The notes: generated by a model not told the origin, from the letters alone. Shown: positions 549-49,084, numbered from the stretch's first letter. The stretch is 64,000 nt of DNA from an uncultured candidate division Zixibacteria bacterium (GCA_963801605.1 CAWDFP010000011.1:64001-128000), one strand, 5' to 3'. Numbers and translations: made by a program.

Positions 549-886
549 CGCTGCCTCCTACTCTTTCAAACCTTTGCGGCTTTTATTTTTTTTCAAATAT
601 CTCAGAGAGCGAAGGGAGCTTCACTTATGTCCCGCGATAGTCAGTTTCGTTATTATTGAATTGCAGCCGATGACTATCGATTGCTCTTCTTAACTTTTAA
701 CTCTCACTATGAACTACGGAAATCGCAAGGCAGTGTTTCAAAAATTTACACAAACATTTATAAAGAAAAATAAATTTTTAGGGGAATAAAATAATTGAAA
801 CATTTGTAATATTAAAGATATCGATTACAACAAAAAATGGCGTCAGACCCTAAAGCCCGACGCCATAAAATAAAAGCGGAATTGAT

Positions 887-2263
887 TTACATATCGTCCA
901 CGGTTTTAATGGTAACAGTCCCCAGAGTTTTCAAGCTATCCTGTACTGCGGCGGCGTTGGAAACGATGGTGAAATCCATATTATCGGGATCGATATACTT
1001 CTGCGCGGCGCGAAGGATATCTGCCTTGGTTACCTTTTTGACATTCTTTGTGAAATCCTGAATGTAAGAAACGGGGAGATCGTAAATCTTGATCTTAATA
1101 ATTTCACTGGCGACCTGCGCGGGCGTCTCAAGGGTCATTGGATAATAACCCTCGTAGAAGTTAACGGCATCGGTATATTCGTTATCGGTAACTTCAGCCT
1201 GCCGAATCCCCTTAATTACTTTAAGCGAGGCGCGGATAGCGCTCATGGTGGAATCGTTTTCGGTGAAAGTGTTACAATAGAACGCGGCGGGATGCAGATT
1301 CCATTCGTTGGTGCTGCGAATATCGTAAGTCATGCCGCCCTTAACGCGAACCTCGTTGTTGAGACGCGAGGTAAAACCGACTCCCAGAATATAATTCATA
1401 AGGAGCATCGGATAATAATCAGGATTCTGGCGAGTGATGCCGAAATGTCCATAGCGGATATTTGTCTGGGTGACATCGGGTTTGTTAATGAGCAGAATAT
1501 TGTATCCTTTAGGCGCAGGAGGCATGGTCCAATCGAGGACCGGGATCGTGGCCTGTTTCCAATCTCCGAAAGCCTTGGAAATCTTGGGCAAAATCTCAGC
1601 CGGTTTGATATCTCCGGCGATCACCAGGAAAGCATTGTTGGGATGATAATAGGTATTGTAGAAACCGGTGATATCATCCCTGGTGATAGCCTTAACCGTC
1701 GGCTCAGTTCCCTCGCCCGGATGGCCGTAGGGGTTGTCGCCAAAGAGCATCTGATCGAAACCTCTGTCGCAGAGGGTGCCGGCATCATCTTTTGATTGCA
1801 CGATGCCGCTTAGCACCTCGTTTCTGTGACGTTCAATTTCGCTGGTATCAAATGCCGGATGCAGAATGATTTCGGAAAGTAGTCCCAGGCCCACATCGAA
1901 ATGCTTCAGTAACACATCGCAACTGGCGTTGGTAGCATCGCGATCGGCTCCGGCGCCCAGCGATCCGCCTACAAAATCAATCGCCTCGGCAATTTGCGTG
2001 GCGGTTTTGCCCTCAACGCCGTTTCGAAGCATGCTGGCGGTGAAATCGGCTAATCCGCCCTTTGCCAGGGGATCGTTAGCAGAGCCGGCTCTGATTACCA
2101 TCCTCATCGAGACAGTGGGAAGTTCGTGGTTTTCGATAGTCACCACCACCAGCCCGTTAGAAAGAGTGTCTTCGGTTATCGGAGGAAGCTTGACCTCGCT
2201 GGCATAAGCCCAGGTGAAACCGAAAAGAACCAGTATTATTATTAGGTATTTTTTCATAATCAC
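887..2263 (-). CDS. M16 (insulinase/pitrilysin) family protein, non-catalytic subunit
   Basis: M16 motifs (DTLSNGL, RAGSANDP, SRLNNEVR..GMTY) but HxxEH replaced by DFTAS; signal peptide; 4-bp overlap with upstream M16 gene. Confidence 0.85.
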   Translation of the reverse strand: MIMKKYLIIILVLFGFTWAYASEVKLPPITEDTLSNGLVVVTIENHELPTVSMRMVIRAGSANDPLAKGGLADFTASMLRNGVEGKTATQIAEAIDFVGGSLGAGADRDATNASCDVLLKHFDVGLGLLSEIILHPAFDTSEIERHRNEVLSGIVQSKDDAGTLCDRGFDQMLFGDNPYGHPGEGTEPTVKAITRDDITGFYNTYYHPNNAFLVIAGDIKPAEILPKISKAFGDWKQATIPVLDWTMPPAPKGYNILLINKPDVTQTNIRYGHFGITRQNPDYYPMLLMNYILGVGFTSRLNNEVRVKGGMTYDIRSTNEWNLHPAAFYCNTFTENDSTMSAIRASLKVIKGIRQAEVTDNEYTDAVNFYEGYYPMTLETPAQVASEIIKIKIYDLPVSYIQDFTKNVKKVTKADILRAAQKYIDPDNMDFTIVSNAAAVQDSLKTLGTVTIKTVDDM

Positions 2264-3612
2264 TTCCCTTCCCCGGCGTTAGGAGCGGCGGCTTTTTGTG
2301 GAGGCTTGGTGGGTATCAGGTTAATAACCGTCCGTCCATTTTCCGTCAAATACTTGTTGGCCACCCGCATGACGTCATCAGCAGTGACAGCCTGAATTTT
2401 GTCGGGATAGCTGTAAATATTGTTGTAATCATCAGTGCTTATCTGGAACGAGCCAACCTCGCTGGCGCGGCCCTCATTCGATTGCAGACCATTAATGAAA
2501 TCAGATTCCATCTGGTTTTTAGCTTTCTGAAGCTCATCGGCGGAGATCGGCTCCGTTTTCAAACGATCGATTTCCTCGAAAACTTCTTTTTTAATCGAAT
2601 CCATACTGGAACCGGGAGTAGCCTGCGCGGCAACGTAAAAGAGCGAGGGGTCATGCAGCACCATAGCGGCGCCCTCGACGAAGATCGCTTTCTGCTCGGC
2701 GTATACCAAGCGGTGATAGAGCCTCGACGACTCACCGTCGAAAAGCACTTTGCCCGCAACCTGTAAGGGAACGATATCGGCGTCCTTTCCTGCGGGGATT
2801 TTGTAACCCGCCATCATGGCGGGCAGTTGAGCGACTTTGTGGAAATCAATTCTTTTCTCGCCCTTTTGTTCCGGCTCCACGGTAGTTACGAGCGGGGCCG
2901 GAGGTTCGGCCTTGATTACGGCGTAAGATTTTTTAACTAGCTTCAGCGCCTCGACGGGATTGAAATCGCCGGCAATCACCAAAAAGCTGTTATTGGGAGC
3001 ATAATGGCTGCGGTAATAATCGAGGCTCTCTTGCAGAGTGATAGCGTCGATATCCGATCTGAAGCCGATCGGAAGCCATCTGTAGGGGTGCGCTACGAAG
3101 GCGTTATTGAAAAGCTGTTCATACATGGCGCCAAATGGCGAATTATCATATCGCCAGAGTCGTTCGTTGATGACCACGTTGCGTTCGGAATTCAAGTTGG
3201 CTTCGTTGATATCCAAATTGCGCGAGCGATCCGCTTCCAGTTCAACGGCGATAGCAAGCTTATCGGAGGGCATAACCTCATAGTAGGTAGTATTGTCAAA
3301 GGCGGTCCAGGCGTTATTTACGCCGCCGTTGCCGTTAACGAGGCGATCAAATTTGTCCTTGGGAAAATTTTTTGTGCCTTTGAACATCATGTGCTCGAAA
3401 AGATGCGAGATGCCGGTAATGCCCGGCCGCTCGTTTTTGCTCCCGGTTTTATACCAGACCTGTACGGTGACAGTGGGAGCGGAATGATCCGGTATAAGCA
3501 GCACCATCAGGCCGTTATCGAGCTGTTGCTTTTCGATGGGAAAAGCCAGCTCCGCGGCCGGAGCCGTTGCCGCAAAAATTAAAAAGAAAAGGACCGTCAA
3601 TCTCAGGGTCAT
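2260..3612 (-). CDS. M16 family zinc peptidase, catalytic subunit
   Basis: GSKNE..GITGISHLFEHMMFKG (HxxEH), NAWT..D.T.Y, ERNVVINER; signal peptide. Confidence 0.92.
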   Translation of the reverse strand: MTLRLTVLFFLIFAATAPAAELAFPIEKQQLDNGLMVLLIPDHSAPTVTVQVWYKTGSKNERPGITGISHLFEHMMFKGTKNFPKDKFDRLVNGNGGVNNAWTAFDNTTYYEVMPSDKLAIAVELEADRSRNLDINEANLNSERNVVINERLWRYDNSPFGAMYEQLFNNAFVAHPYRWLPIGFRSDIDAITLQESLDYYRSHYAPNNSFLVIAGDFNPVEALKLVKKSYAVIKAEPPAPLVTTVEPEQKGEKRIDFHKVAQLPAMMAGYKIPAGKDADIVPLQVAGKVLFDGESSRLYHRLVYAEQKAIFVEGAAMVLHDPSLFYVAAQATPGSSMDSIKKEVFEEIDRLKTEPISADELQKAKNQMESDFINGLQSNEGRASEVGSFQISTDDYNNIYSYPDKIQAVTADDVMRVANKYLTENGRTVINLIPTKPPQKAAAPNAGEGK

Positions 3613-3628
3613 TATTCTCCTCCGATTG

Positions 3629-6007
3629 TTATTTTATTTTTATTTCGTATTGTGGCTTGTAATAATATTCGCCATCGCCCGCTCGGCCCAGGATTGAACT
3701 AAGCTGGCTCTCAAGCGATGGCGTACTTATCGACGGCAAAAAAGAAACACTGTATACGGGAAATGTCTCCACCTCGATCCTGTCTTTGGGATCGATATGC
3801 GCTCTCTGGCGCGCCCGCTCGATAGCGTCATATATGCCGCCGTAATTATCAACCAATCCGAATTCCTTGGCTTGATGGCCAGTCCAGACGCGGCCCTGAG
3901 CAATGGCATCGATAGAATCGTAATCGATCTTTCGGCCCGCAGAGACCTTTTTCACAAAATCATCATAATACTCCCACATCAGGGTATCGATCAGAGCCAA
4001 CTCGCCGGTCGTTGCCGGACGGTTGCTCGCCCGGATATCGGCGTGTTCGCCCCTCTTAATTGTTTCGTTGCGAATTCCGATCTTTTCGTAAAACCCGGAA
4101 AGATCCACTTTGCCAACCACGACGCCAATCGATCCGGTGATTGTGCCCGGCGAGGCCAGTATCTCGTCTCCGGGGCAGGAGATATAATAACCGCCCGATG
4201 CTGCCACGCCGCCCATCGAAACTATCACGGGCTTTTTCGATTTGAGCAGCAATAGTTGCCTATAGATTTCCTCGGAGGCAAAAACATCCCCGCCCGGTGA
4301 ATTAACTCTGAAAACCACGGCTTGAATTGCGGGGTTTTCTCTAATCTGCTTAAGAGTCTTTCGAAGTGTCGTCGATCCGACTACCTTGCCTTCAAGGAGA
4401 CTGGTGCCGTTCTCGCCCTGCATGATCGACCCGTCAGCGTAAACGATAGCGATCTTCTTGGGCTCACTCCAACGAGGATTATAATCGGGAATATTATAAT
4501 AGTTATCCAGATCGATCTGGTCCGCAAATGGTCCGCCATTCTCAGACAGTTCATCATAATTTTTAAGATCATCGATTAAGCCGGCGTTATAAGCGTCCTG
4601 CGCAGAAAAAGGGCCGGAATCAATCAGGTTCCTCATCTTTTCAGGCGATACATTTCGGCTGGCGGCAATATCGTTGACAAACTGATCATAGAGATCGTCG
4701 AGCAGCCAGTTGATCTGTTCGCGGGCGGCATCAGAAAGGGCAGTATCGACGAAAGCGTCACCGAAAGTTTTATGCGGGCCGGTCGAGAGAATTTCGGCTC
4801 TGATCCCCAGTTTATCCATAGTCCCTTTATAGAAACGAGTCGTAGCGGCCAGGCCTTTGAGTTCAAGCAATCCCGATGGATTCATGATGATTTGGTCTGA
4901 AACCGAGGCCAGATAATATCCGAGATTACCAGTCTCGCCCATATAGGTCACTACTCTCTTGCCGTTATCGCGATATTCCTTTATGGCGTTTCGCAATTCC
5001 TGAACGCTGGCGAAATCCAGATTGACATCCTCGATATTCACAAGCAGGCTTTTGATATGAGGATCGCTCGCGCCGCGTTTGAGGTCTCGTATGACCGAAT
5101 AAAACGAGCGTTTGCCCGGTGCGAATATCGCCCGGCCCCTCGGCTCCTCAACGATATCGCTTTTCAAAACCATAGAGCCCGGTCGAGCGACACTGGCGAA
5201 ACCGGTGCGATACTCCTCAGCTTCCACCTCAAGATAATAGGACCCGCCGCTATAGTGGCTTTCTCTGAAGATTCTGGGTTGGATCCCGATGCTCGATTGC
5301 GAGAAATCGAAGGATAAATTAAAACGCCATTGTCCGTTGGTACGATAGTCACTAACGAACGACACCCCGTTGAACGGCCCCAGGGCCACTCGAAATATGC
5401 CGTTGGAATGCGAAATGGATTTTCCTTCGAGGAAAAGGCCATCGGCGGAGAAAGTGATTTTATCGCCAAAAGGACGAAGCCCCAGGCCGGGCTGGTAGAT
5501 GCGTTTTTGTTTGATTCCCCCAAGACGGGGTTCATTTAATTTGTCGACGACCAAACCCAGTGAGGCAAACGGTTTGGGGTGATATAACAAGCCAAGCTTC
5601 CAATCCTTTTTGCCCTTATATAAGACGTCGGCAGCGCCAAACCAGGCGTAGGAAACCCCGACATAAAAATTGGGAAGCATACGGTCACCCATGGCGAGCG
5701 TATATTTTCGTCTGAAGATATCGGTGGAATGATTGAGCCACTCTATCGAGAAGAAAGCGCCTCGAGACGCCAGCATCAAGCCATCGTTACCCTTGTAGGT
5801 GGAATCGGTGAAATCATGAGTATACTGCAAACCCATCGAATTCCAGAATCCGAGCGCCGCGGGATTTACAATTCCTGAAAGCGGGCGGTCAACCGTCGCC
5901 ACCGATTGTGATTGATAGTCGACTCCCGACAGGGGATCGATTTGCTGGGCATTGATGTTACTCAGGGAAAAAAGCAAAGCGATTAAGGTAATCGGAATGT
6001 ATTTCAT
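3629..6007 (-). CDS. sppA: Signal peptide peptidase SppA (S49) fused to an N-terminal predicted beta-barrel domain
   Basis: C-terminal tandem S49 domains (YYLASVSD; RVNSPGG, ASGGYYIS, TITGSIGV, GRVWTG); N-terminal ~260 aa with NPAALG and alternating aromatic strands. Confidence 0.85.
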   Translation of the reverse strand: MKYIPITLIALLFSLSNINAQQIDPLSGVDYQSQSVATVDRPLSGIVNPAALGFWNSMGLQYTHDFTDSTYKGNDGLMLASRGAFFSIEWLNHSTDIFRRKYTLAMGDRMLPNFYVGVSYAWFGAADVLYKGKKDWKLGLLYHPKPFASLGLVVDKLNEPRLGGIKQKRIYQPGLGLRPFGDKITFSADGLFLEGKSISHSNGIFRVALGPFNGVSFVSDYRTNGQWRFNLSFDFSQSSIGIQPRIFRESHYSGGSYYLEVEAEEYRTGFASVARPGSMVLKSDIVEEPRGRAIFAPGKRSFYSVIRDLKRGASDPHIKSLLVNIEDVNLDFASVQELRNAIKEYRDNGKRVVTYMGETGNLGYYLASVSDQIIMNPSGLLELKGLAATTRFYKGTMDKLGIRAEILSTGPHKTFGDAFVDTALSDAAREQINWLLDDLYDQFVNDIAASRNVSPEKMRNLIDSGPFSAQDAYNAGLIDDLKNYDELSENGGPFADQIDLDNYYNIPDYNPRWSEPKKIAIVYADGSIMQGENGTSLLEGKVVGSTTLRKTLKQIRENPAIQAVVFRVNSPGGDVFASEEIYRQLLLLKSKKPVIVSMGGVAASGGYYISCPGDEILASPGTITGSIGVVVGKVDLSGFYEKIGIRNETIKRGEHADIRASNRPATTGELALIDTLMWEYYDDFVKKVSAGRKIDYDSIDAIAQGRVWTGHQAKEFGLVDNYGGIYDAIERARQRAHIDPKDRIEVETFPVYSVSFLPSISTPSLESQLSSILGRAGDGEYYYKPQYEIKIK

Positions 6008-6069
6008 TTATGCTCCTTGATAAATTTCCGGGAGGAAAATACGCAGTCGAATGAGTGGAGGCAAGGGTT

Positions 6070-7212
6070 TTATCGGCCCTCGATTTCAATTGTGCCGATC
6101 CCGCTGACTTTCAGCTCTATGCGGCCTGCCCCGGCCCCCAGCGTGCCCTCCAGGCGGGTGGCATCGAGGAAAGTCGGCTTCACCGGCAGATCGGTGGTGT
6201 AGATTCGCCCGCCATCATCTACAGTTGCGGCAATTTGAGAGGAGGTGTTCGGCGGAATGGCGAGAACAATATTATTATAAGTGTTGAACATGAACAATTG
6301 GCTCTCGTCTTTGAGATCGAGTCCGGCTTTGATAGGGGAGTAGCTGGTTTCAAATCGGGATTGCCCCTGCGTCAAGATGCAATCATTAATATCGATAGGG
6401 CTGAAAGAAGTTTCGCAGATTATCTCGCCGGAGACATCATTAAGCGTGATGGGCGAGTAACTGGTCCTGAAAACTGCGGAGCTTCCCTTGGCCAGAATAT
6501 CCGTGGCTTTTATTGGCGAATAGGAGGTGTAAGCCTCGACTGGTCCCTGTATATTGGAAAGATCGATTGGCCCTCCGGTATTCTTAAAGATGGCGCTTCC
6601 CAGAGGCACATTAATATCAGTGGCTTTAATGATAGCGTAACGCGTTTCGGCTTTAATGCTGCCGGTGATATCCGTCAGATTAATCGCGGCGAAGGTGGTG
6701 GTCAGATCAAGCGGACCATTTATCTCGGCAATATCAAATTCGGAAAATCCGCATTGCATATCCATTCCGCCGAATGGTCCGCGGACCTCCAATTTCATAA
6801 ACTGCAACTGGCCCTCGATCCTCATTTTTTCGGGGAGCTGCACGATGATATCGAGTGAAACGTGATAATTGCTTCCCTCCCAGGGGGAATCGGATGGCGT
6901 CAGGATGGTCAGCACTGATCTATCCGTACCCGGTACCAGCCTGAGATCAATCAGGTCTATAAAACGCTGAGCCTGTGATTTGTTATCGGCCTCGGCCCAT
7001 TTTTTATAGGAGATATTAATTAGATTTTCGTCAGCGGGAATAATTTTGATATTGCCATTAAGATTTCGGCTGCCATGAATTTCAAACACCAACTTGCCAT
7101 CAGCCGAGGCGCTTAGTTGGCCGGTTTGTTCTACCGGTTCTCCGGCCGATGCCAATGAAACCGCGGCAAAGATTGCCAGCATACAAGTTATCGTTTCTCG
7201 AACCTTTCTCAT
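6070..7212 (-). CDS. DUF4097-like beta-strand repeat protein
   Basis: Signal peptide; repeated 'I.G.i...TsyspI' units. Confidence 0.7.
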   Translation of the reverse strand: MRKVRETITCMLAIFAAVSLASAGEPVEQTGQLSASADGKLVFEIHGSRNLNGNIKIIPADENLINISYKKWAEADNKSQAQRFIDLIDLRLVPGTDRSVLTILTPSDSPWEGSNYHVSLDIIVQLPEKMRIEGQLQFMKLEVRGPFGGMDMQCGFSEFDIAEINGPLDLTTTFAAINLTDITGSIKAETRYAIIKATDINVPLGSAIFKNTGGPIDLSNIQGPVEAYTSYSPIKATDILAKGSSAVFRTSYSPITLNDVSGEIICETSFSPIDINDCILTQGQSRFETSYSPIKAGLDLKDESQLFMFNTYNNIVLAIPPNTSSQIAATVDDGGRIYTTDLPVKPTFLDATRLEGTLGAGAGRIELKVSGIGTIEIEGR

Positions 7213-7256
7213 AATGGCTCCAGTTAATATACGATAACTTATGGCGGCTGTTGCAA

Positions 7257-8159
7257 CTAAAACTTTTCGATGCGCTTATTATATATGGCGGCGACCAGCA
7301 CCCGTCCCACCGCCTCCAGTGATTGCGGCGAGCATTTATCCGGTGTATCCTCGTGGGTGTGCCAATAAGGATAGTCGAAGTCTATGATATCTATGGCTTT
7401 GATGCCGCTCGACAGGAGGGGGATATGATCATCGGAAACAGAATGCTTTACCGAATCGATAAAGGCCGTTGAGCCAATCTCTTTGGCAACGCTCCAGATA
7501 TAATCGTTTATTTCGCCGGCGTAACGCTGCGAAATCGACTCGCGATATATTTGAAGGTCTTTATCTCCCACCATATCGAGTAATATTGCCATTCTGGGAC
7601 GATATCCTCCCAGATTTCGGGCAAAACGGGTGGAACCCAAAAACCAGCCCTTTTCTTCCCCGGCAAGCCCATAATCTTCACCATCGAATAAGACGATATC
7701 GACTCCCACTGGTGGTGGCTGCATGCTAAACAGACGGCCCATTTCAAGGAGGATTGCAACTCCCGAGGCGCCATCGTTTGCTCCGGGAATTGGTTGGTGA
7801 GCGAGGATCGAATCGGGGTCTTGATCGGCGCGCGGACGGCTGTCCCAATGGGCACAGAGCATAATACGTTTCTTCATTTTGGGATTATAGGAAGCTATTA
7901 CATTTGTCAATGAGAGAGTTTGTCCGCTGGAAGAATCTAAATAAGTAAAATTCTGTCTTTGACAAAGTTCGGTAGTGTTTTTTAGCCGGTCGAATAGATA
8001 TCCAAGCGCTTTTTCATGCGCCGGGCTATTGGGCACTCGGGGGCCAAAATCGCACTGCGCTACCAGGTCGTTATAAGCCCGAGTAGCGTCGAATTGCGGC
8101 GTTCCCCCGCAAGAGATAGTCAGAAAGGCGGTCGCTATCGCCGCTAATACGGTCCTCAG
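7257..8159 (-). CDS. M28 family metallo-enzyme, glutaminyl cyclase-like lipoprotein
   Basis: AHWDSRP, GANDGASG, FDGED, LLDMVG, DDHIP, YWHT..D motifs; frame stays open 41 codons upstream of the tracked GTG (8036) through a lipoprotein signal LRTVLAAIATAFLTISC. Confidence 0.85.
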   Translation of the reverse strand: MRTVLAAIATAFLTISCGGTPQFDATRAYNDLVAQCDFGPRVPNSPAHEKALGYLFDRLKNTTELCQRQNFTYLDSSSGQTLSLTNVIASYNPKMKKRIMLCAHWDSRPRADQDPDSILAHQPIPGANDGASGVAILLEMGRLFSMQPPPVGVDIVLFDGEDYGLAGEEKGWFLGSTRFARNLGGYRPRMAILLDMVGDKDLQIYRESISQRYAGEINDYIWSVAKEIGSTAFIDSVKHSVSDDHIPLLSSGIKAIDIIDFDYPYWHTHEDTPDKCSPQSLEAVGRVLVAAIYNKRIEKF

Positions 8160-11100
8160 AATCGAATCTCCGCGTTAATACCAAGTTCCCTGATATGATG
8201 CTTACGTTTCTGAATCTTATCGTTGGAATCGTCCCAGCGCGCTCTGAGACCGCCGGTGATGGCTTTGGAGAATTGATAATTAATACGGGGCTCAACTACG
8301 GTCTGAGAGCGGTTAACGTCCATTGATCTCGAACCGCCGGAGACAGATTCCGAGGTTGAGTTTTTCAAAGTTATATCGAGACTTATTGAAAGCTGGCTGT
8401 TGAATTTAACTCTCTTTAATAACGGCAGTTTCAAGCCTTTGGGGGCGCTAAAGCTATAGTTGAAAGACAACTTGATACTTTTATCGGTGCCGTAGGTATC
8501 ACGAATCGTCATACCCTCGCTTCTTAGATTTTGCGAGATATTTCGAATCAGATCGTAGCGCAGGCTACTTCTGACATTATTAAGGAAATTGATACTGATT
8601 GCCGCCAGAGGGGCCCATTGTTTGCCGGTGTCTCGTTTGTATAGTTCGCCGGTACTGGCGTCGCCGTTATTGTCAACTTTTTTAGAGTAGGATGTTTGCA
8701 GGGTGACGCCGTTGGAAACTTTTTTAAACAGCGATAATTTTTCCAGACCGGAAAGATTTACCTGAATATCCGGGAAGGTGACCGATTTTGTAAAAGTCGG
8801 AGTATTCGACGATAGCGTTTTGGTCTTTCGCATGCTATAGCCGCTATTGATATCGAGGCCATGGCCCGGCTGAAGCCCGGAATCCAATTGGTAATCATCG
8901 CTGAAAACCGATTGGTTTTGGCCGGCCAGACCTGACGTCGCCTTGGATCTGACGTTGGGGTCATTGATCAAGCCAAACATATATTGCCATGACGGTCTTC
9001 CAAGAAGCCCCTGGAGGGTCAGCTTTCTATCCTTCATGAATGACGCTTTGACAGGTTTGATAGCCCTGAAAAAGCCGGCAAAGCGCTGTAGCATCCAGGA
9101 TGGCGATCCAATTCCGGGGCCGGTTTTAGGCTCATCGAGCGAAGGCGCTTCGTCGCGCATTTTTTGAGCGTCAGTAGTATCTCCCTTGACCGGATTATCA
9201 CCTCCGCCGGGCAGATCGGGACGCTTGGGGGGAGTCGGAGTTGGCCGGTTGGGCGCTTTTATAAAAGAAAACAAGCTTTGCAGATTAAGCGTAACGTCAG
9301 TCTTAAATGTACCGCCCATCTGGGTAGCTCTGGTGGAATCGGGATTGCGGGTCAGATCGGAATTTTCCGCGTAGGTTGACGTGAAGGAGAATCTGTTTTC
9401 CAGGGGGTTGAATAACTTGGGCTGGAAACTGGATTCAAACCTTTGAGTGAACGATTCCTCCCGACCAAGTTTCAGTTTTGATGGGTTGATGCTGAGCTTG
9501 AATCGGTTCGGATCGCGTATATCTCTGGCGCTGGAAAGATTATATCCGGCGTGCAATGTCGAAAACAGATTCAGGGCGGTCGTGCCGTTAAGCGATAAAT
9601 CTTTCACGCGCGTGCTGGTGGTAATTCCTCGATAATTAAGGGTGCTGGATTTACTGCCATTGACCTCCCCGGTAAAACTAAGCTGAGTGGGAAGATAAAA
9701 TAGCTGGCTATTGTAAAATTTCGATGGCAGAAAAAGATATTTAGTCCAGAAAAATGGTTTGAATGACGGTTTTGCTTTGGGCGAAAGATCATAAGCTCCG
9801 GTACCTCTGTAGGTATCTCGTCGGTCTGAGGGGTTGGACGGAGATGTACCTTCGCTTCGACTGAAAGTATAGCCGGCCCTGATACGGTTCAGAGTCAAGT
9901 TCCAGAGCCAGTTATTGGTGGTACGATTGATAGATTCCGAAATGCTATAACTGAACGATTTGTTTTCGGTTTTCTCGATCTGCTGGGCTGCTGAATTGAG
10001 GATAATATCCGACCCCGGCTTGAGCCTTGGCAATGCCAGATTGCTTTGCCAGGAGACCGAAACAGGAATGGTCATTCCCAACGACGGCGGGAAAAATTTC
10101 TGAGGGTTGAGGTCAATTCTCAGGGCTTTACCGATACTCGTGGAGCCAACGGCTTTACCGGCGAGAGGCGTAAAATCGGCTCCGGTTCGGTTATAGTTCC
10201 CGCTGATTGTCATGAGATCCGAGAATCTGGCGGTAGCCTGAATTCGTCCGGCGAAATCGCTTTTGCGGCGTACGCCTGTAACTCTCATTTCGTCGATCCA
10301 GACCTCGCCGCTGTAAAGCTCCGTAGCCTGGCCGCCAACTTCCACTCCAACGATGAAAGTCTTTACCTGGGAGAGAGCCGGGTTGCCATGGATATGATAA
10401 TGGCCGTCGGTGGTGTCAGGCATCCAGGTGTTAGGAGCCGAATCGGGCTTGGGGGTTTTGAGCATCTCATATTTAAGCTCGGTGAGTTTGGCAAAGTCGA
10501 TATCTACCCAGTTATTCTGCGACCAGCCGGTATCGAGCACGGCTCTGTATTCATAATAATTCCGGGCATCCTGATCCTGGCTCAATCTTAGAAAGAATGT
10601 CAATTGTGCATCGCCGACTCTACCGGCGGTAATCGTATCCCCATGCACATACATCTTAAGATTCGAATATTGGGTGTAATCCTCGGGGGTATACAAATTC
10701 GTATAAGCGCCGCTGAGATGGCCGGATGCCAAATTTTGATAGGCCAGAACCAGCGACTGCTCTTTTTCTCTGATGCCGGTGCTGCGATCGAGATTTCCGG
10801 CCACTCCGGGAGGAGAATAATAACTGGAGTTTTCCTGAGTATTCTTGATCGTGATTTCGAATTTTTCCTCGGGCCGCAGCGTATCTCCGGCGGGGAATGC
10901 GATCGGCATCTCCAACCATCTATTGCCCACCAATTGAACTGATGCGATGGCCATTCTATGTGCCTTTTTGCCTCCGCCAAACCAGATTCGAGCGAAATTT
11001 ATCCTCTGGAAATCAGCGGATGTGCTGATGCCTCGGACTTTATATACGCTCGAATCCTGGAACGGAATCCTGAGAAGCTTCCAGCCGGTGCGAGTCGAAT

Positions 11101-14100
11101 CTGCCAGAAATTCGGGGTTCTTAAGGTGAATCGTATATTCGAAATATCCGTTCTGCGTATCGAGCGAATTATTGTTATTGATATCCTCGGTATCGGCACG
11201 GCCCCGCCGGTCGGGATCATCATTGTTTCCCTCGGTACCGTTGATATGAGAATAATCCGGATTATTCGGATTCTGATCGGGATTCCAGATCCAATCATCA
11301 TGATTGGGATCGGGGTTAGTCGCAGCATTATATCCCGGTTCCTGAGGATCAAATACACCATCGAGGCCGGTATCTTCCAGATCGGGCTCGAAAGTTCCAA
11401 TCGAGCCGGCATTTTGCCGATCTTCGCTATCGAGCCGTCCATTGTTGTTGATATCTTCTGAGACAGCCCCAAAATCGAGATTTAACGTCGGGTCCTCATT
11501 TAAATCCACTGAATCGGGATAATACCAAACCTCGATAAACTTCATATCCGTCTGATCGGCTAACCCGGCGAAAAACGGCCTCATGATTCCCGTCCAGGAT
11601 GATTCGGGGGCGGCGAAGGCTGTATCCGGGAAATAATTCAAAAATAAAACATCAATACGGTCGTCTTCTTGCTTTACCGAACGATCAGGCCAGATTTCGG
11701 TCAGACGAAGGGTGGTAATGGGATTATACCACCAGATATCGGATCTTCTTTCCAGAGGATATTTAACGCCGGATGGGTCAAGCGGAGGCGATGCCAGGGT
11801 CCAGATACCGCGCCTGGTGGAAAGATCGGTATAGCTTCTGGCGCCTTCGAAATCATCTATGAAAGCTTCATCCTTGGTATTGGGATTGGGAAAGCTCTGA
11901 GCAACTTCGCCTGTGACCTCAAAAGTGGAGGGAGCATCGGTCTGTATAAATGGCAGGAAGTTTACCATGTTCGTCATAAATTCGGGCTTGAAGTTGAAAT
12001 CGAAATTGCTATCCCAGACAAAACCTTTTTTAGGTTCACGTCCCACGCGCGGCCGAGGATCAGAAGCCGATTCCGAACGATACATGGCGGCCATGGTGAT
12101 ATTGGAATTATCCCAAAGAGAGTACTGCCCGGCCACGCCGAATAAGCTTTTCTTTTCCGGCATGAAGAATGGAGCGTACTCAAAATCTATCGAGACATTT
12201 GCGGCGGGATTCAAGGCTTGATCATTCAGGAAAGTAATCTGCCCGATATCGTAATTGATGTTGTAATCGACATCCCGGCGCAGGACAGTGCCGTCACCAA
12301 GTTTGACAACCTCGGAGTTGGGCATGATGTTGGCGCGGCCCAGGGAGAAAGTCGAAGCACGCGTGGATGTTTTTACATAAATATAATATTTACTGGAATT
12401 AGGCAGGGTAGGAGCATCACGAGGTTCATTGTATATATTGGGCACTCTTTCAGCCTCGGGAAGACTGTCACTGATAAAAGGGAATCTGCTGGGGAAAATG
12501 AGATGGCCCCTGGAGGCGTCGATCTTGGTATTGTTAAAATCGAATATACAATCGGCGCCCGGCGTTTGATTGTTGGTGAGACTATCCAAGCCCAGCAGAG
12601 TAATATAGCAATGGCTGTTCAAGTCTTCGGGATCAGTAATTTGGTCATTGACAGCACCCGTGCCTTTATAAATTTTCAGCTCAAAACCGTCCGGTGAAAT
12701 ATCCCGGGATCCCAAATCGTAGACATTGCGCCACATGCGGTTCCAGGTCGCAAAGGCCGAACTGGCATTATGGTGCTTCAAGAGCTGCAAAACCATAGTG
12801 GTATCGTTCGTGCCCTGATTACGGCGATAATTCAGGTTTCCAATTATGACTGTATCTATTTTCTGGTAGTTGGCCGGATCATGATGATAATATTTAATAT
12901 ATGCTCCTAAATCCTGGCTGGGTTGAATCGGTTTATTCAATACAATGTACCAACCCATGGGGACAACTACATAATCGGCAGGATAGACGGGTGCAAAAGG
13001 AGTATAAATATATTCGCCTCTGTCATATTCCTGGGAAGTCATACAGGGCAGGCTGTCGCAAGGGTTGACCACTGCAATTCCGTAAGGATCATTGGGAGGG
13101 GTGCCCGGCACATAAAGCTCCACCGAAAGGAGTGTATCCTCAGCAGTATGGTTCACATCCAACCAGAAATAAGTGTTGGCCAGATATTCGTAATCGCGAA
13201 TATTATGGGGGGTCCCCTTAGCGCCGGCGCTGATGGTAGATTTCTCGGTGGTTCCCTTTTCCTGACTGGTAATCATTGTGAGATCGAGATTTCCGATACG
13301 GGCGGTCGATTTGATACCGAATAGTCCCTGCACATTTTGAGAGTAACCAATTAGCTGAGCATTTGGCAGCGCTAGATTGGTATTACCGGCCTCGATGGTT
13401 TGAAGGATCTCATCCTCGCCGCCTTTGTAGCGCAGCTTGATGGTATTGGCAAGGTCGACATCGCGCTTGGAGTCCTGGTCAACCTCGACCGTAATCTTCG
13501 AACCGATATTGCCCGTTACCTTGAAACGCGAGGTTTGCTCCATTTGAAGGGTGGGGAATTTCGATTGTTTAAAGGTACCGGTATTCTTAAGACCATCTTC
13601 CCATTCCGAACGACCGGAAAAAGAGATCGACCGCGAGCCGTTGACCTGAATACTCGAGCGGCCCTCGCCGATAATACTGGTCACCGCCTTGGGCGGCTCC
13701 CAGGGAATATCAATACTGACAGCTCCCTTATTGTCGCCGACATCACCCTTGCCGAGAACCGTTCTGAGATCGTTTTGCCACGATTTATTGAGCGCGTACT
13801 GCCGTCTAAAACTCACATAGTTAGAAAGCTTCTCGACCTCAACGGACGGCAACAAGTACTCACCATAATAATCCCTTTGAACGATGTATTCACCGTCAGG
13901 GGAGAAGACTATATCACGTTTGTATTTTAGGGATGAAAACTTAAATAAATAACAAGGAGCGATATCATTAAGTCCCTTGCCGCTGGAGGGAGGACCTTCT
14001 TCCGCTCGAAGTACAAATCTGCTATTAATTTCCAGGGGAACTCTCAGATCACTGATTTCTGTCGCCCGCACCCCGGATGAGATGATCAGGATCGAGAGTA

Positions 14101-14128
14101 AAACGCCTATTCTAGTATACAAAGACAA
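8156..14128 (-). CDS. sprA: SprA/Sov-like large outer-membrane protein (T9SS translocon family)
   Basis: 1990 aa; LQTIEAGN..L......QGLFGIK, Y.INYDIGQITF, AFIDDFEG, DTEDINNN, YYEYR, VWIDEMRV motifs typical of SprA; C-terminal Phe. Confidence 0.88.
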   Translation of the reverse strand: MSLYTRIGVLLSILIISSGVRATEISDLRVPLEINSRFVLRAEEGPPSSGKGLNDIAPCYLFKFSSLKYKRDIVFSPDGEYIVQRDYYGEYLLPSVEVEKLSNYVSFRRQYALNKSWQNDLRTVLGKGDVGDNKGAVSIDIPWEPPKAVTSIIGEGRSSIQVNGSRSISFSGRSEWEDGLKNTGTFKQSKFPTLQMEQTSRFKVTGNIGSKITVEVDQDSKRDVDLANTIKLRYKGGEDEILQTIEAGNTNLALPNAQLIGYSQNVQGLFGIKSTARIGNLDLTMITSQEKGTTEKSTISAGAKGTPHNIRDYEYLANTYFWLDVNHTAEDTLLSVELYVPGTPPNDPYGIAVVNPCDSLPCMTSQEYDRGEYIYTPFAPVYPADYVVVPMGWYIVLNKPIQPSQDLGAYIKYYHHDPANYQKIDTVIIGNLNYRRNQGTNDTTMVLQLLKHHNASSAFATWNRMWRNVYDLGSRDISPDGFELKIYKGTGAVNDQITDPEDLNSHCYITLLGLDSLTNNQTPGADCIFDFNNTKIDASRGHLIFPSRFPFISDSLPEAERVPNIYNEPRDAPTLPNSSKYYIYVKTSTRASTFSLGRANIMPNSEVVKLGDGTVLRRDVDYNINYDIGQITFLNDQALNPAANVSIDFEYAPFFMPEKKSLFGVAGQYSLWDNSNITMAAMYRSESASDPRPRVGREPKKGFVWDSNFDFNFKPEFMTNMVNFLPFIQTDAPSTFEVTGEVAQSFPNPNTKDEAFIDDFEGARSYTDLSTRRGIWTLASPPLDPSGVKYPLERRSDIWWYNPITTLRLTEIWPDRSVKQEDDRIDVLFLNYFPDTAFAAPESSWTGIMRPFFAGLADQTDMKFIEVWYYPDSVDLNEDPTLNLDFGAVSEDINNNGRLDSEDRQNAGSIGTFEPDLEDTGLDGVFDPQEPGYNAATNPDPNHDDWIWNPDQNPNNPDYSHINGTEGNNDDPDRRGRADTEDINNNNSLDTQNGYFEYTIHLKNPEFLADSTRTGWKLLRIPFQDSSVYKVRGISTSADFQRINFARIWFGGGKKAHRMAIASVQLVGNRWLEMPIAFPAGDTLRPEEKFEITIKNTQENSSYYSPPGVAGNLDRSTGIREKEQSLVLAYQNLASGHLSGAYTNLYTPEDYTQYSNLKMYVHGDTITAGRVGDAQLTFFLRLSQDQDARNYYEYRAVLDTGWSQNNWVDIDFAKLTELKYEMLKTPKPDSAPNTWMPDTTDGHYHIHGNPALSQVKTFIVGVEVGGQATELYSGEVWIDEMRVTGVRRKSDFAGRIQATARFSDLMTISGNYNRTGADFTPLAGKAVGSTSIGKALRIDLNPQKFFPPSLGMTIPVSVSWQSNLALPRLKPGSDIILNSAAQQIEKTENKSFSYSISESINRTTNNWLWNLTLNRIRAGYTFSRSEGTSPSNPSDRRDTYRGTGAYDLSPKAKPSFKPFFWTKYLFLPSKFYNSQLFYLPTQLSFTGEVNGSKSSTLNYRGITTSTRVKDLSLNGTTALNLFSTLHAGYNLSSARDIRDPNRFKLSINPSKLKLGREESFTQRFESSFQPKLFNPLENRFSFTSTYAENSDLTRNPDSTRATQMGGTFKTDVTLNLQSLFSFIKAPNRPTPTPPKRPDLPGGGDNPVKGDTTDAQKMRDEAPSLDEPKTGPGIGSPSWMLQRFAGFFRAIKPVKASFMKDRKLTLQGLLGRPSWQYMFGLINDPNVRSKATSGLAGQNQSVFSDDYQLDSGLQPGHGLDINSGYSMRKTKTLSSNTPTFTKSVTFPDIQVNLSGLEKLSLFKKVSNGVTLQTSYSKKVDNNGDASTGELYKRDTGKQWAPLAAISINFLNNVRSSLRYDLIRNISQNLRSEGMTIRDTYGTDKSIKLSFNYSFSAPKGLKLPLLKRVKFNSQLSISLDITLKNSTSESVSGGSRSMDVNRSQTVVEPRINYQFSKAITGGLRARWDDSNDKIQKRKHHIRELGINAEIRF

Positions 14129-14241
14129 CGTACACCCTGCCGCCGTCGGCGGTTTTTAGATGCTACATTCAGTCTTTAGCGAATGTCCCTAAGTCCTCCT
14201 TTGATATTTGGTTTTCATTACGTGCTCGCTGCACGTTCTCG

Positions 14242-15156
14242 CTACGGGTCAATATACAATATTTCCCGTTTTAAATCCAGACCAAACTTCGCCCTGGCAG
14301 CCGCTATCATGTTGGCGACTAAAGTCTTTACATCACTTGAGGTTGCGCCGCCCAAATTGACTACAATATTGCAATGCTTTTCAAAGACAGCGGCCTGGCC
14401 GACTCTCATCCCCCTAACTCCAGCAGCTTCAAGGATTTTTCCCGCTGGAGTAACATTGGTGGGATCTTCAAGCGATCTCAGGTTTTTAAATACCGATCCG
14501 GCTGATCCCAAACCTACCGGATGGTGGTCTTGACGGAATTTCCGCCTCTCATTAATAATATCGGCTAATTTTTGTCTGTTCTCAACTTTTAATACCAGCT
14601 TGACTGTCAATACAACGTCTCCCGAATCCGAAAGGGATGATTTCCTGTACGCGAACTTGAAATGATTATTATCGACAATGGCAATTTGACCGTCATGAGT
14701 GTAAAGCACGGCGCTTCGAAGGATTTCGTTGATGGCATGACCAAAGGCTCCGGCATTACCATAAACCGCTCCGCCGATCGTGCCCCGGATTCCGGCTGCA
14801 TATTCGAGTCCTCCCAGTCCGGCCTCCAGAGCGGCATCAACCATCTTATCGACCACCGCGCCCGATTGAGCGGACATTCCATCGGGATAGACCCTAAATT
14901 TCGCGCACTCGTCCTTGATGATAAGCCCGGTATATCCGAGATCATCAAAAAGGATATTCGATCCGCCGCCAAGAACAAAAAACTTGATGCCCAGATCGCG
15001 CGCGGCCCGCACTGCTCTGATTATTTCGGTCGGGGTTTTCGCTACGAAAAAGAAGTTAGCTGGTCCGCCGATTCCGAAACTGGCATACGGCGCCAGGATT
15101 ACATTCTGCTCCACGCGGCCATCGAGCTTGCTATTCAAAATTTCTGCACTTGTCAT
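14242..15156 (-). CDS. murB: UDP-N-acetylmuramate dehydrogenase
   Basis: FGIGGPA, LGGGSNILF, GI.GTIGGAVYGNAGA, F.YR.S, SAGSVFKN, KHCNIVVN; start position uncertain. Confidence 0.93.
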   Translation of the reverse strand: MTSAEILNSKLDGRVEQNVILAPYASFGIGGPANFFFVAKTPTEIIRAVRAARDLGIKFFVLGGGSNILFDDLGYTGLIIKDECAKFRVYPDGMSAQSGAVVDKMVDAALEAGLGGLEYAAGIRGTIGGAVYGNAGAFGHAINEILRSAVLYTHDGQIAIVDNNHFKFAYRKSSLSDSGDVVLTVKLVLKVENRQKLADIINERRKFRQDHHPVGLGSAGSVFKNLRSLEDPTNVTPAGKILEAAGVRGMRVGQAAVFEKHCNIVVNLGGATSSDVKTLVANMIAAARAKFGLDLKREILYIDP

Positions 15157-15179
15157 TACCACGAAAAAAACTTCACTTT

Positions 15180-16764
15180 CTAATTTTCCGGATTCCATTC
15201 CATATTGGCGAGTTTCAAGAGCGAAATAGCCAGGGAGATGGCCAAAAATCCGCAGGACACCAGTAACATAAAGATTATCGGACTTATGAAACCTGATAGA
15301 AACCGCGAGACCAGATAGACCAATCCGTAAAGTCCAAATCCGCTGAACATCATCAAAAGAGCATAAAGAAAGGCTCCGCCGCCCTTAAGCATTCGTCGGG
15401 GATGTTCCCAGCTGAAATTGGCAAAGAAAATTCCCAGAGGCAAACCCATTGATAGCCCAACCCATGCAAAGCCAATCATAAATAGAATGACGATAGGGTC
15501 TGTTATTCGTCCGGTTACGAAATGAATAATCCCAACCAGGGCGGAAAATACTGTTACAAAGATTAGGCCGATTATCGTTTTGCTTAATATCGTCAGGTTG
15601 CGGCCATTTGGAGTTGACATATTCTGCCAGAAACCAAGCCTCTCCATGGGAATCAGGCGACTGCCGATCTGTCCGCCGAAAAAGGCCGCGAAAAGAGCGG
15701 TTACCGGCGAAAGCGAAAGTTTGGTCAGGCCTGCAAGTTCATCTTTACCGGTAACGTAAGGATAGAGCAGAAGAAACACCAACATTATCAAGCTTTGCGT
15801 CACAACGCCCGGGCTCGCGCCAGAAAATCGCGAGATCTCGTCTGATATGAGCCATGAGAGGTGAGCCTCCCATGCTAATCCCGGATATCGCCGCTGACGG
15901 TAACGCGACTTCTTCACCAATACCGTTAGCATAATGACGGGAAATCAGGATTAGCGCGATATAGATTAATGCCATTGAAACTATCGCCAGTATTCCCATG
16001 AATGCCAGGCTTTGTCCCCAATGTCCGAAGGCCGCTTCCTTTGTAGCGCCATAAGCCCATCCCGACGGCAGCCATTTGAGTATCGGCGACGATACATATT
16101 TGGCCATTCCCTCAAATGGTATATTCATATCGGGTGTTTCCGATGAAAAACGGCCGTTGAAACGGTTCATGAACGCCCAGAAAATAACACCAATCAAGCT
16201 TCCGATAATCGTGATTGCGGTTTTGAGTCTTGCTTTGGGAATTCTGCGGCTTAAAAATGATGCGATAATAATACCCAGCGCCCCGGGTATTACGGCCATT
16301 AGAGTTGCTACAATGATCACTATAAAATAATAGGGAAATGCGGCGTGGTAATGAAGACCCAGAGTGATCATAGTGGGCACAATCAGGAGAAAGGAGAATC
16401 GCATATTCTGATAGGTGGCATCTGTGATTTTGTAGATGAATATGTCGCGCGGCTTGATAGGCATAGTTAACAGCAGCTTTAAGTCATTCGAGAAAAAGAT
16501 GGTGAGTATCGCCATCGATAGACCCCAGAAGCACAGCCACATAAACATGCCGTGAAAAAGCATGGCAGTCAGGAAATCTATAAATTTCTCACCCTGCTCA
16601 GGGTTTATTTTGGCAAATTCATATATTCCGATAAAAAAGCTGATAAAGGCAAATGCCACAGCTAATAAAGCAAAAAGGAATAACAGGGTCTGTCCGACTT
16701 TTTTGCCTCCCTTAAACATCGAGAGAAGCATTTTTAAACGATATTTAATGAGGGTGAGGATCAT
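15180..16764 (-). CDS. ABC exporter permease, split by a frameshift near 15810
   Basis: Two overlapping hydrophobic ORFs (15745-16764, 15180-15932) join as ...DLAIFWREP/GVVTQSL...; DLKLLLTMPI and WLPSGW motifs; next to an ABC ATPase. Confidence 0.75.
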
Positions 16765-16864
16765 AACGATTATTTATAATGTTCCGATATTGCCTATCTT
16801 TTTGTGGTAGATTGCAGGTTGGGTTTCTCACTCGGTCAAGACCCTTGCTCGAAACCTGACTTAC

Positions 16865-17627
16865 CTAATTCTTCAAATACTTAACAACCTCATCATATTC
16901 GGAACCGCCGGTGAGCTCGATAAATAACTCCTCCAATGTCGAGCCTTCTTTGGCGTTGCTTTTGAGCTCGGCTGTCGGTCCGCTGACCACAATCTTGCCT
17001 TTATTTATGATATAAAGATTGTTGCACATGCTTTCGGCGATTTCGAGAATATGAGTGGAAAAAAGGATGGCGCAACCGCCTCTCGACAATTCGAGCATGA
17101 TATCTTTAATCTTGCGCGTTGCCCGGGGATCGAGCCCTCCGGTAGGTTCGTCAAGAAGCAGCACCTCGGGACGATGCAGCACCGCGGCCGCCAGCGAAAC
17201 TTTCTGCTTGGTTCCGTGTGAGAGCGAAGAAATAAGTTTTTTACATTGATCGCCGAGATCGAACAACTCCACCAAATCGCGAAATCCTTTTTTTCGCCAG
17301 GCCTTTCTCAAGTCGGAATACCTCGGCGGTAAAATTGAAAAACTCGGTTGGAGTCAGTTTATCATAGAGATTCGGAATATCCGGCACATACCCGACCTGT
17401 GATTTAGCCCGGATGGGATCGCCCTCGAGATCGAATCCGGCGATATTGATCTTGCCGCTATCGGGCTTGAGCAGGCCGATCAGCATCTTAAGAGTGGTGG
17501 TTTTGCCGGCGCCGTTAGGGCCTAAAAAGCCAACGATCTCTCCGGCCTGTACTTTAAGGCTGACATCATCGACAGCCCTGAGTTTACCGTAGGTTTTTGA
17601 AAGATTTTCCGCCGATAGCTTAATCAT
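16865..17627 (-). CDS. ABC transporter ATP-binding protein, split by a frameshift near 17283
   Basis: Walker A GPNGAGKTT in 17241-17627; LSHG signature, LLLDEP and STH in 16865-17311. Confidence 0.9.
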
Positions 17628-17974
17628 TCCTTATTTTCCTGATCGGGTTCGTCGGGTTTTGGTGTTTCGCTTTTTTCTTCTTTTTTATCCGGCCCCTTTT
17701 TTAACTCATCGAGATAATTTAACCTGAGTTCATAGAGCACGTGCTGCAAATATTTATCTTCGCTTTCGGTCAGGTTGCCTTTGGTCTTGGCCTCCAGCAT
17801 GCCCAGCATATCGATCGAATGCTTGGCCATCTCGATGTCGCGTTCTATTTTGCCGCTGATTACGCTGGGCACTTTTCCCAACTGCTGCCAGGCGGCCGCC
17901 TGAAATGAGAGCACAAGCTGGGTAAACATTAGCTCGTGGCTAAAATCTCCCGATGCCGATTTCTCATCATTCAT
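17624..17974 (-). CDS. DUF1844-like protein
   Basis: QQLGK......ERDIEMAKHSIDMLGMLEAKTKGNLT..E motif; ATG at 17974 follows the upstream small gene. Confidence 0.8.
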   Translation of the reverse strand: MNDEKSASGDFSHELMFTQLVLSFQAAAWQQLGKVPSVISGKIERDIEMAKHSIDMLGMLEAKTKGNLTESEDKYLQHVLYELRLNYLDELKKGPDKKEEKSETPKPDEPDQENKE

Positions 17975-17978
17975 AATA

Positions 17979-18161
17979 TCAGCCTTTCTTTGCAAGTCTG
18001 ACTGCAATTGCCAGCTTATGCTGTAAATCCATGAGGTCGGCCTCGATTTGTTTGAGCAGCCTCTGCAAATCGAGATCGCCGGCGTCATCGATCATGCTGC
18101 GTACCTGATCAGCCACATTTTTGGCGCCATTTAAGGCGTCCTGAAGTTTTTCACTTTTCAT
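17979..18161 (-). CDS. Small helical hypothetical protein (60 aa)
   Basis: Fills the gap between recG and DUF1844; GGGGA RBS; amphipathic helical sequence. Confidence 0.65.
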   Translation of the reverse strand: MKSEKLQDALNGAKNVADQVRSMIDDAGDLDLQRLLKQIEADLMDLQHKLAIAVRLAKKG

Positions 18162-18187
18162 AATCCTATCCCCTTTATTCCCGAATA

Positions 18188-22334: not shown

Positions 22335-22433
22335 GATTTAATTGCTTGACTGTCCATGAATTTATGCGATATTTAAGTTACTGTTTTTTCCATTTAGTCC
22401 GGCGTGAGTGGCTCTTTTAACGAGGAGGCCTCT

Positions 22434-24577: not shown

Positions 24578-24732
24578 AATCTATCTGGCTGCGGGTGTTG
24601 CCTGATTCGTTTGACAACATAATACTGTAATTCAGCCTTAACACCTCGGGTAATGCCTGGATTATTCATGAGTAACCTGGAATTAACCCGATTGATGAAT
24701 TACTGTGATGATTTATTTTGAAAGAGGTTGGC

Positions 24733-26829: not shown

Positions 26830-26909
26830 TGTCACTTAATTTTAAAAGAATATGCCGGCTCGGAGATGCAACATTACTTAAAAATAATGCTCAATCATCA
26901 GAGGCTGAC

Positions 26910-49052: not shown

Positions 49053-49084
49053 CGGCCCAGGCGGGTGAATATTCGGTTCGGGAG

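Follow-up and report, generated by a model that had tools for sequence, protein, structure and literature searches.

Why should sprA, the gene for the outer-membrane translocon in type IX secretion systems (T9SS), stand in a tightly packed run with protein-maturation and protease genes in a bacterium outside Bacteroidota? The question is raised by a stretch of 64,000 nucleotides from an uncultured candidate division Zixibacteria bacterium (GCA_963801605.1, CAWDFP010000011.1:64001-128000), called the window throughout. A first-pass annotation had proposed here a T9SS variant in which export is genetically linked to N-terminal cyclisation and to peptide degradation. With moderate confidence, we read the locus as one long cell-envelope transcription unit, in which the gene for the pore of a motorless T9SS is followed by an old partner, a predicted glutaminyl cyclase (QC), and then by periplasmic proteases specific to one order. 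The run consists of six genes and a closing hairpin:

8156..14128, minus strand: sprA (sov), T9SS outer-membrane translocon, 1990 aa, C-terminal Phe (TIGR04189, PF14349)
7257..8159, minus strand: type II (animal-type) QC, predicted lipoprotein (PF04389, PDB matches)
6070..7212, minus strand: exported DUF4097-like (toast-rack) protein, 380 aa (orthologue matches to PF13349)
3629..6007, minus strand: SppA (S49, tandem domains) after an N-terminal PorV/FadL-type 14-strand barrel (TIGR00705, model)
2260..3612, minus strand: M16 peptidase, catalytic subunit (HLFEH, motif at residue 70), signal peptide (PF00675/PF05193)
887..2263, minus strand: M16 peptidase, non-catalytic partner (no HxxEH), signal peptide (PF00675/PF05193)
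837..866, minus strand: terminator-like hairpin closing the run (13 pairs, 7 of them G-C, T tail)

The six genes are co-oriented with gaps of -4 to 62 bp, as first described: sprA and QC are separated by -4 bp, and the following gaps are 44, 62, 16 and -4 bp. Of 29 terminator-like sites in 20 kb, none is as strong as the hairpin 3' of the last M16 gene, and a promoter scan was uninformative (24 sites against 26.7 expected). The co-oriented run starts upstream of sprA, with recG, DUF1844, an ABC transporter and murB at gaps of -19 to 113 bp. Since murB lies immediately 5' of sprA in 33/33 loci having upstream DNA, adjacency alone proves little.

The presence of a T9SS is apparent from its components. 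The sprA product scores 716.8 bits with TIGR04189 (cut-off 200), and its closest named records, at up to 55% identity, are titled Candidatus Zixiibacteriota. sprA was found in 41/41 genomes and in 150/151 genomes of the phylum, and PorU in 40/41. No porKLMN or porU gene lies within the window, as had been noted, but in this genome (G000; 87% complete, 2.9% contamination) PorU is encoded elsewhere (C6:1378993; NF033707, 701 bits against 420), and no weight attaches to its being missing from the window. A porV gene adjoins porU and exceeds the family cut-off (NF033709, 237 against 90); its score with the stricter PorV equivalog NF033710 stays below the cut-off (184 against 250) because the protein carries an insert. 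In all, eight places in the genome hold PorV-family members over the NF033709 cut-off. Sorting domains are abundant, with 115 TIGR04183 matches in G000, 110 of them over the cut-off on their own.

The PorV encoded beside porU (region C6:1378261-1388000, which holds porU, porV and an M6-like cargo gene) has 861 aa, of which ~520 form an insert that separates the NPA motif from the first strand of the barrel. The insert, together with a downstream M6-like cargo gene, recurs in 20/20 fetched Zixibacteria porU loci and is longer in three loci (PorV ~1050 aa); Reg_prop repeats occur in 20/21 and LysM in 8/21 aligned members. A structural model (pLDDT 81) matches PorV best and also propeller proteins. 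In five genomes from other lineages, the best-matching PorV lacks this propeller-LysM insert. With the PorZ profile (cut-off 260), near full-length matches were obtained in two relatives (G008, 202 bits; G074, 149 bits), split matches in two others (G064, G152) and fragments only in G000. A fusion with PorZ was considered as the origin of the PorV insert and rejected, as separate PorZ-like genes exist in relatives. An SprE-like lipoprotein gave 54-92 bits against a cut-off of 250, and TPR proteins match that profile in 12/14 controls.

The motor, on the other hand, was not found. GldM was found in 0/41 genomes, 0/4 single-contig genomes and 0/5 genomes behind loci of other lineages, and GldN was likewise found in 0/41 genomes, 0/151 genomes and 0/4 genomes behind loci of other lineages. 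The GldL and GldK profiles had no match in G000, a single genome that is 87% complete, and GldK was over the cut-off in 0/8 single-contig Zixibacteria; FGE-type matches, none above 93 bits, occur in three of the eight and are lacking in five. As a positive control, the same profiles were run on a Parabacteroides record in which a gldK-N cluster is annotated, and gave 543 (GldK), 575 (GldM) and 192 bits (GldN). A tblastn search of G000 with the Parabacteroides GldK/L/M/N proteins returned nothing (best E 0.52; no match for GldL at E 1), whereas Parabacteroides SprA found its G000 counterpart at E 7e-76. The proposal of a T9SS variant is thus upheld by the profile search of the genome: SprA, PorU, PorV and sorting domains are over their cut-offs and PorK/L/M/N give no match, genome- and phylum-wide as far as searched. 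To judge from sequence, this is a T9SS variant outside Bacteroidota without a recognisable motor.

A motor might still exist, either as PorKLMN proteins too divergent for the models or as a borrowed ExbB/TolQ-type stator acting via the PorV insert or the SprE-like protein. Release is energy-requiring in Flavobacterium (PMC10994853; papers given by PMC number are cited for their available excerpts), the SprE-like lipoprotein is the single best match in 5/5 genomes, although below cut-off, an ExbB/TolQ-type motif is present in G000 at C5:9309, and the PorV insert could serve as a periplasmic handle. We nevertheless regard a hidden motor as unlikely. PorK/L/M/N give no match where SprA, PorU and PorV are readily detected, and 5/8 single-contig Zixibacteria lack even an FGE-type match; moreover, the neighbours of the SprE-like gene look metabolic by eye, and nothing ties the ExbB/TolQ-type gene to sprA.

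How such a system could work without a motor is best considered against Flavobacterium, in which loading needs no energy and release of the PorV-cargo complex does (PMC10994853). The energy-requiring release has been tied to GldK-PorG (PMC12635249), and current models hold the PorLM motor and PorKN ring to be essential for cargo release from SprA (PMC10994853, PMC12635249). In the motorless system that we favour, the parts would be those found to be encoded, i.e., SprA, PorU, PorV, the SprE-like lipoprotein and more than 100 sorting-domain proteins, with PorK/L/M/N not found. As in Flavobacterium, no energy would be needed for loading cargo onto PorV inside the SprA pore, and the cargo would be released in a fixed SprA-PorV-PorU assembly, with sortase cleavage and folding outside the cell giving direction and no rotary motor pulling PorV. 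This is the weakest step of the scheme. Release in a fixed assembly is probable because the periplasmic propeller-LysM module of PorV would tie the protein to the wall.

The second part of the reading concerns the pairing of sprA with QC. The sprA regions of 39/40 relatives were compared, G036 being left out for its short contig; in the phylum-wide count, QC was scored as adjacent if it lay at most 1.2 kb downstream of sprA on the same strand. QC was found in 121/151 Zixibacteria genomes; two were dropped for want of a listed sprA position, leaving 119 with coordinates for both genes, and in 112 of these the two are adjacent. QC also stands behind sprA in 10/16 loci outside this order and, in other phyla, in 3/4 informative loci titled KSB1 and 3/6 titled Calditrichota. 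It does not follow sprA in the loci from Gemmatimonadetes (0/2) or Latescibacterota (0/2 informative). Record titles are loose, several close relatives having been submitted as, e.g., 'Ignavibacteria'. Elsewhere, sprA is followed by the housekeeping genes for comEA-like HhH proteins, rsmD, coaD, selA/selB, lpxC, prmA and ppx. Judged by gene order, the sprA-QC pairing is old and conserved far beyond chance.

Two observations were made beside sprA in these comparisons. In loci titled Latescibacterota, Calditrichota and KSB1 (L157, L200, L218), another envelope neighbour is found upstream of sprA, namely lptF/lptG in divergent orientation. In one relative (G017, L047), a second short SprA-like open reading frame (ORF) of 323 aa lies between sprA and QC.

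The M28 gene after sprA is predicted to encode a glutaminyl cyclase with cyclase activity. In the PDB it matches glutamine cyclotransferases of the Bacteroides/Tannerella/Porphyromonas type best (4fuu, E 6e-61; 6qro, E 1e-56; 7cje, E 3e-50), and aminopeptidase structures match at E 1e-12 only. Residues D129, E161, D162, D195 and W266 are invariant in 20/20 aligned orthologues, and H267 is kept in 19/20. The signature of type II QCs, with defining residues taken from PMC7948796, is present: single-zinc Asp/Asp/His ligands, a catalytic Glu and Asp, a Trp before the His, and Asp-Gly rather than Asp-Asn/Asp. The first-pass description of a glutaminyl-cyclase-like M28 lipoprotein is confirmed by PF04389 and the cyclotransferase structures, with the provision that the lipoprotein signal needs a CTG start. 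This signal and the 4-nt overlap require a CTG within the last codon and stop of sprA (8156-8159), the first ATG/GTG/TTG of the QC frame lying at 8036, 119 bp away. In relatives, sprA/QC overlaps of -1/-4 are common, with ATG, GTG, TTG or CTG as start, and a TTG or CTG start at -4 is also seen in loci L031, L034, L037 and L040. CTG is the probable QC start, forced by the overlap with the terminal Phe codon and TGA of sprA.

If the cyclase is active, exported proteins may be expected to bear Gln at the mature N-terminus. Using a crude signal-peptide predictor that is blind to the +1 residue, we found Gln at +1 in 103/339 predicted signal peptidase I (SPI) substrates of G000 (30%), against 22, 16, 24 and 12 at positions +2 to +5 (p 2e-47), which is consistent with an active QC. 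According to the excerpts cited, QC works on SPI substrates generally and cyclisation does not control T9SS targeting (PMC5837995, PMC10653852); its role is stabilisation against aminopeptidases (PMC10653852). By homology, the QC lipoprotein of the motorless system would cyclise N-terminal Gln exposed by SPI on any exported protein, and this capping would shield the proteins from periplasmic aminopeptidases. QC would then serve the whole secretome and be co-expressed with sprA, without being part of the pore.

The same data bear on a more specific role, in which QC is a dedicated translocon partner, made 1:1 with SprA by translational coupling and capping cargo or SprA-associated outer-membrane proteins at the periplasmic mouth. 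The adjacency in 112/119 genomes and its recurrence in other phyla would fit such a partnership, as would the stop/start overlap, retained even at the price of a CTG start. Further, ~30/65 cargo proteins with a recognisable signal peptide begin with Gln (counted by eye, not blind), and PorV orthologues often start with Gln. However, 30/151 genomes have no match to the sprA-linked QC, and 29 of these 30 have a listed sprA; type I QC, considered as a substitute, was rejected since it is present in just 5 of the 30. The pair is unlinked in 7/119 genomes, the PorV of QC-negative G026 still begins with Gln, and Parabacteroides sprA sits between ruvA and a TonB-dependent receptor. In addition, the Porphyromonas enzyme PgQC is reported to be inner-membrane-anchored and unneeded for T9SS targeting (PMC5837995, PMC10653852). 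A dedicated partnership is decidedly unlikely on this balance.

The third part, the protease tail, behaves differently from the sprA-QC pair. The DUF4097 label given at first has weak support and comes from orthologues alone: the window protein itself has no Pfam and no PDB match, and 9/20 aligned orthologues match PF13349 at E<=0.1 (best E 1.4e-7). The barrel-SppA and two M16 genes are as annotated, given TIGR00705 (343.5 against a cut-off of 311.45), a 14-strand model, and PF00675 with PF05193. SppA has tandem S49 domains, and its Ser/Lys dyad candidates, S604 and K413, are invariant in 14/14 sequences. A structural model (overall pLDDT 64) shows the N-terminal ~265 residues as a barrel of 14 strands, so that in place of an N-terminal inner-membrane anchor helix the protein appears to have a signal peptide and a PorV/FadL-type barrel. 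HHalign of the barrel parts with PorV-family barrels gave 96.4% (E 1.4e-9), and the whole alignment with insert-bearing PorV only 13.8%. Foldseek with the whole SppA model matched the protease part and nothing else, and a word-index search with the barrel returned 23 close relatives only. Both M16 proteins carry signal peptides and would thus be periplasmic. In the envelope unit as we read it, SppA would be suspended below the outer membrane by a PorV-like barrel of its own and would clear periplasmic peptides together with the two M16 proteins, as general housekeeping.

It could also be envisaged that the six genes form a conserved module for export, maturation and degradation, with the barrel-SppA docking on SprA like PorV and clearing stalled cargo or cleaved sorting domains. 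The tight packing and terminator agree with a module, and the full order sprA-QC-DUF4097-sppA-M16-M16 is kept in 9/13 family members, one of the nine having an inserted gene and one lying on a contig that stops within the last gene, and in 2/10 other members of the order. Of the remaining family members, three have contigs that end earlier, and G011 lacks the M16 genes, which are missing behind sppA in G015 as well. The best structural match of the SppA barrel is PorV (residues 24-267 vs 6h3i_F: Z 20.3, rmsd 3.1, 227 residues aligned), but FadL and BamG match nearly as well (Z 18.4 and 17.5), and the barrel lacks two long insertions of the PorV-family template, which are probably the loops that would read cargo. 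DUF4097, sppA or M16 genes were found behind sprA in 0/16 loci outside the order. Barrel-SppA is present in 80/81 genomes and stands beside sprA in 6 of the 80, all of this order (coordinates compared by eye); in single-contig genomes the two are 88 kb (G067), 1.9 Mb (G074) and 2.4 Mb (G064) apart. Gene order largely refutes the six-gene module, which we consider highly improbable, and suggests that the tail is likely a local arrangement acquired by rearrangement in one order. Of the proposed synteny, sprA-QC is kept and the tail is not, and the claimed link of export with peptide degradation is not supported.

Several results weigh against the reading of a motorless pore with a QC serving the secretome. 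Bacteroidetes typically follow a Q-rule with Gln at +1 of >48% of SPI substrates (PMC5837995), and the 30% of G000 lies below this, with the predictor being crude; outside Bacteroidetes, Q-values form a continuum, and Zixibacteria are unmentioned in the excerpts of that paper. The loss of QC in some relatives provided a natural experiment, for which 200 kb each of QC-negative (G064, G120, G050) and QC-positive genomes (G152, G074, G141) were compared. Gln was at +1 in 14/81 proteins of the QC-positive and 8/59 of the QC-negative set (p 0.64; three genomes each, small numbers and a crude predictor), or 3/24, 6/26 and 5/31 against 5/17, 1/27 and 2/15 per genome. This speaks against a tight link between QC and Gln, with slow decay of the bias after loss as a caveat, and as a null result it means that the natural experiment does not confirm the in vivo role of QC. 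Of the export-cyclisation link in the first-pass annotation, the adjacency stands, whereas a functional tie is not borne out by this comparison or by the 30 genomes without QC, almost all of which keep sprA; such support as the tie may have is genomic. The motor models were trained on Bacteroidota, and GldL, searched in G000 only, had no positive control for its hidden Markov model; sequence models would overlook a motor that is divergent or unrelated. By FadL-family topology, the PorV insert, which lies between the NPA motif and strand 1, would be periplasmic and might bind the wall. Finally, sprA-QC is conserved across phyla where murB is no longer a neighbour, which exceeds the need of a housekeeping operon and may point to a physical link.

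Other features of the window relate to T9SS cargo and to the genes upstream of sprA:

22404..29038, plus strand: three genes for T9SS cargo with LVIVD repeats and type A sorting domains, the third in two ORFs (PF08309, TIGR04183 over cut-off)
31499..33683, minus strand: fourth LVIVD cargo gene, two ORFs (TIGR04183, 30.2 against 23)
57076..57975, minus strand: PorV/PorQ-family barrel paralogue, not the main PorV (NF033709, 64.3 bits, below the cut-off of 90)
14242..15198, minus strand: murB (PRK13905/TIGR00179)
15180..17627, minus strand: ABC permease and ATPase, two ORFs each (PF16949, PF00005)
17624..20314, minus strand: DUF1844 and recG, with which the co-oriented run begins (PF08899, recG; order conserved in relatives)

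The four cargo genes reported earlier are recovered with TIGR04183 over the cut-off, two of the four being split in two ORFs. The PorV-like gene does belong to the PorV family, but as a sub-threshold paralogue, the main PorV being encoded beside porU elsewhere. Split genes are numerous in the window (ABC transporter, LVIVD cargo and pcrA, with 2-3 ORFs each, at 15180-17627, 26811-29038, 29142-31384 and 31499-33683). The ABC transporter genes are unbroken in the loci of relatives (L031-L034), and since the split genes are unbroken where checked, they probably reflect assembly indels rather than decay. A second, diverged copy of the sprA-QC-DUF4097-sppA-M16 run, with 65-68% DNA identity, lies at a contig end (C4:20001-39642). 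C4 resembles other contigs, C6 among them, at 65-81% in many places, and this copy is most likely contamination from a relative.

Some further observations concern the surroundings of these genes. Between murB and sprA there is a GC-rich hairpin (14137-14153) with a T run on the plus strand only; it could affect sprA translation or terminate an antisense transcript. An IS3-family transposase pair is located at 48747-49897 of the window. Three similar clusters (L136:4202-13242, L137:2345-10966, L138:7341-17760) each hold a TonB-dependent receptor, a protein whose tail is like a sorting domain, a barrel of the PorV family and one or two lipoproteins, which resembles a repeated uptake module with PorV paralogues as dedicated carriers. 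A possible signalling module (L140:5495-12608) combines a protein bearing a sorting tail, a 606-aa fusion of a PorV-family barrel with TPR repeats and, after these, an anti-sigma/phosphatase regulator. A prenyltransferase resembling geranylgeranylglycerol-phosphate geranylgeranyltransferase (archaeal-type lipid family, below cut-offs) is encoded at L135:7789-8625, downstream of the porU operon by a few genes.

For a phylum with SprA in 150/151 genomes, PorU in 40/41 and >100 cargo genes in G000, the lack of a detectable motor implies that export either takes an energy-independent route or is driven by an unknown engine, and this bears on the evolution of T9SS and gliding. Extending this, Zixibacteria, and probably KSB1, Calditrichota, Gemmatimonadota and Latescibacterota, might have an ancestral motor-free T9SS with a static SprA-PorV-PorU assembly, LysM-pinned in Zixibacteria, >100 exports and a co-translated QC capping cargo at the pore, to which Bacteroidota later added the motor; we offer this tentatively and consider it doubtful as a whole. 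Outside Bacteroidota, sorting domains or incomplete sets of T9SS genes were reportedly noted by Kulkarni in 2017 and by McBride and Zhu in 2013, and motor absence in some FCB lineages may already be in print. Among the papers listed by our search, which left supplements, possibly with distribution tables, outside, we found none on T9SS in Zixibacteria, the sprA-QC pair or a motor-less T9SS. In the excerpts cited, T9SS-like components outside Bacteroidota are mentioned (PMC11285876, PMC5837995, PMC6851124), and T9SS is also called exclusive to Bacteroidetes (PMC5445135). The sprA-QC pair provides a genetic link between systems that in the cited excerpts of Bochtler et al. (PMC5837995) were tied only by co-occurrence. 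The protease tail, as a local gene arrangement, matters little.

Compared with the Bacteroidota T9SS (F. johnsoniae SprA/PorV/PorU/SprE with GldKLMN; P. gingivalis Sov/PorKLMN; PDB 6H3I, 8GL6), the Zixibacteria system shares an SprA over the cut-off, the porU-porV pair and type A sorting domains on >100 genes; an SprE-like lipoprotein and, in relatives, a PorZ-like protein are candidate counterparts with scores below the profile cut-offs. It differs in that no PorK/L/M/N or PorP/SprF was found, SprA has ~2000 aa instead of ~2400, PorV has 860-1050 aa with the propeller-LysM insert, and sprA is flanked by murB and QC, not by ruvA as in Parabacteroides. T9SS has been defined by motor, translocon and attachment modules (PMC8754138). 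As a T9SS of the Bacteroidota type, the system falls short in the motor and would otherwise work like one.

The QC resembles the type II enzymes of Bacteroidales (PgQC PG2157; BtQC 4FUU/7D1D; TfQC 6QRO) in its lipoprotein signal, Asp/Asp/His zinc ligands, a Glu and an Asp as catalytic residues, an Asp-Gly that follows the first ligand, a Trp preceding the His, and the Arg-Pro-x-x-Asp loop. Its gene lies directly behind sprA, whereas that of PgQC belongs to the PG2157-PG2159 operon (PMC10653852). It also has a Tyr at the position aligned with PgPhe294, is dispensable in some lineages, and goes with a weaker Gln bias. With E. coli SppA/protease IV (67K type; 3BEZ, 3BF0), the SppA described here has in common the tandem S49 domains and Ser/Lys dyad candidates (S604/K413), and the inner-membrane anchor helix of the E. 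coli enzyme contrasts with a predicted barrel after a cleavable signal peptide in the Zixibacteria protein. Heterodimeric M16B peptidases consist of one HxxEH subunit and one inactive subunit. The M16 pair described here, two neighbouring genes for ~450-aa proteins of which the first has HLFEH and the second does not, resembles these heterodimers, with the particularity that both have signal peptides and that they are linked to sprA in one order only.

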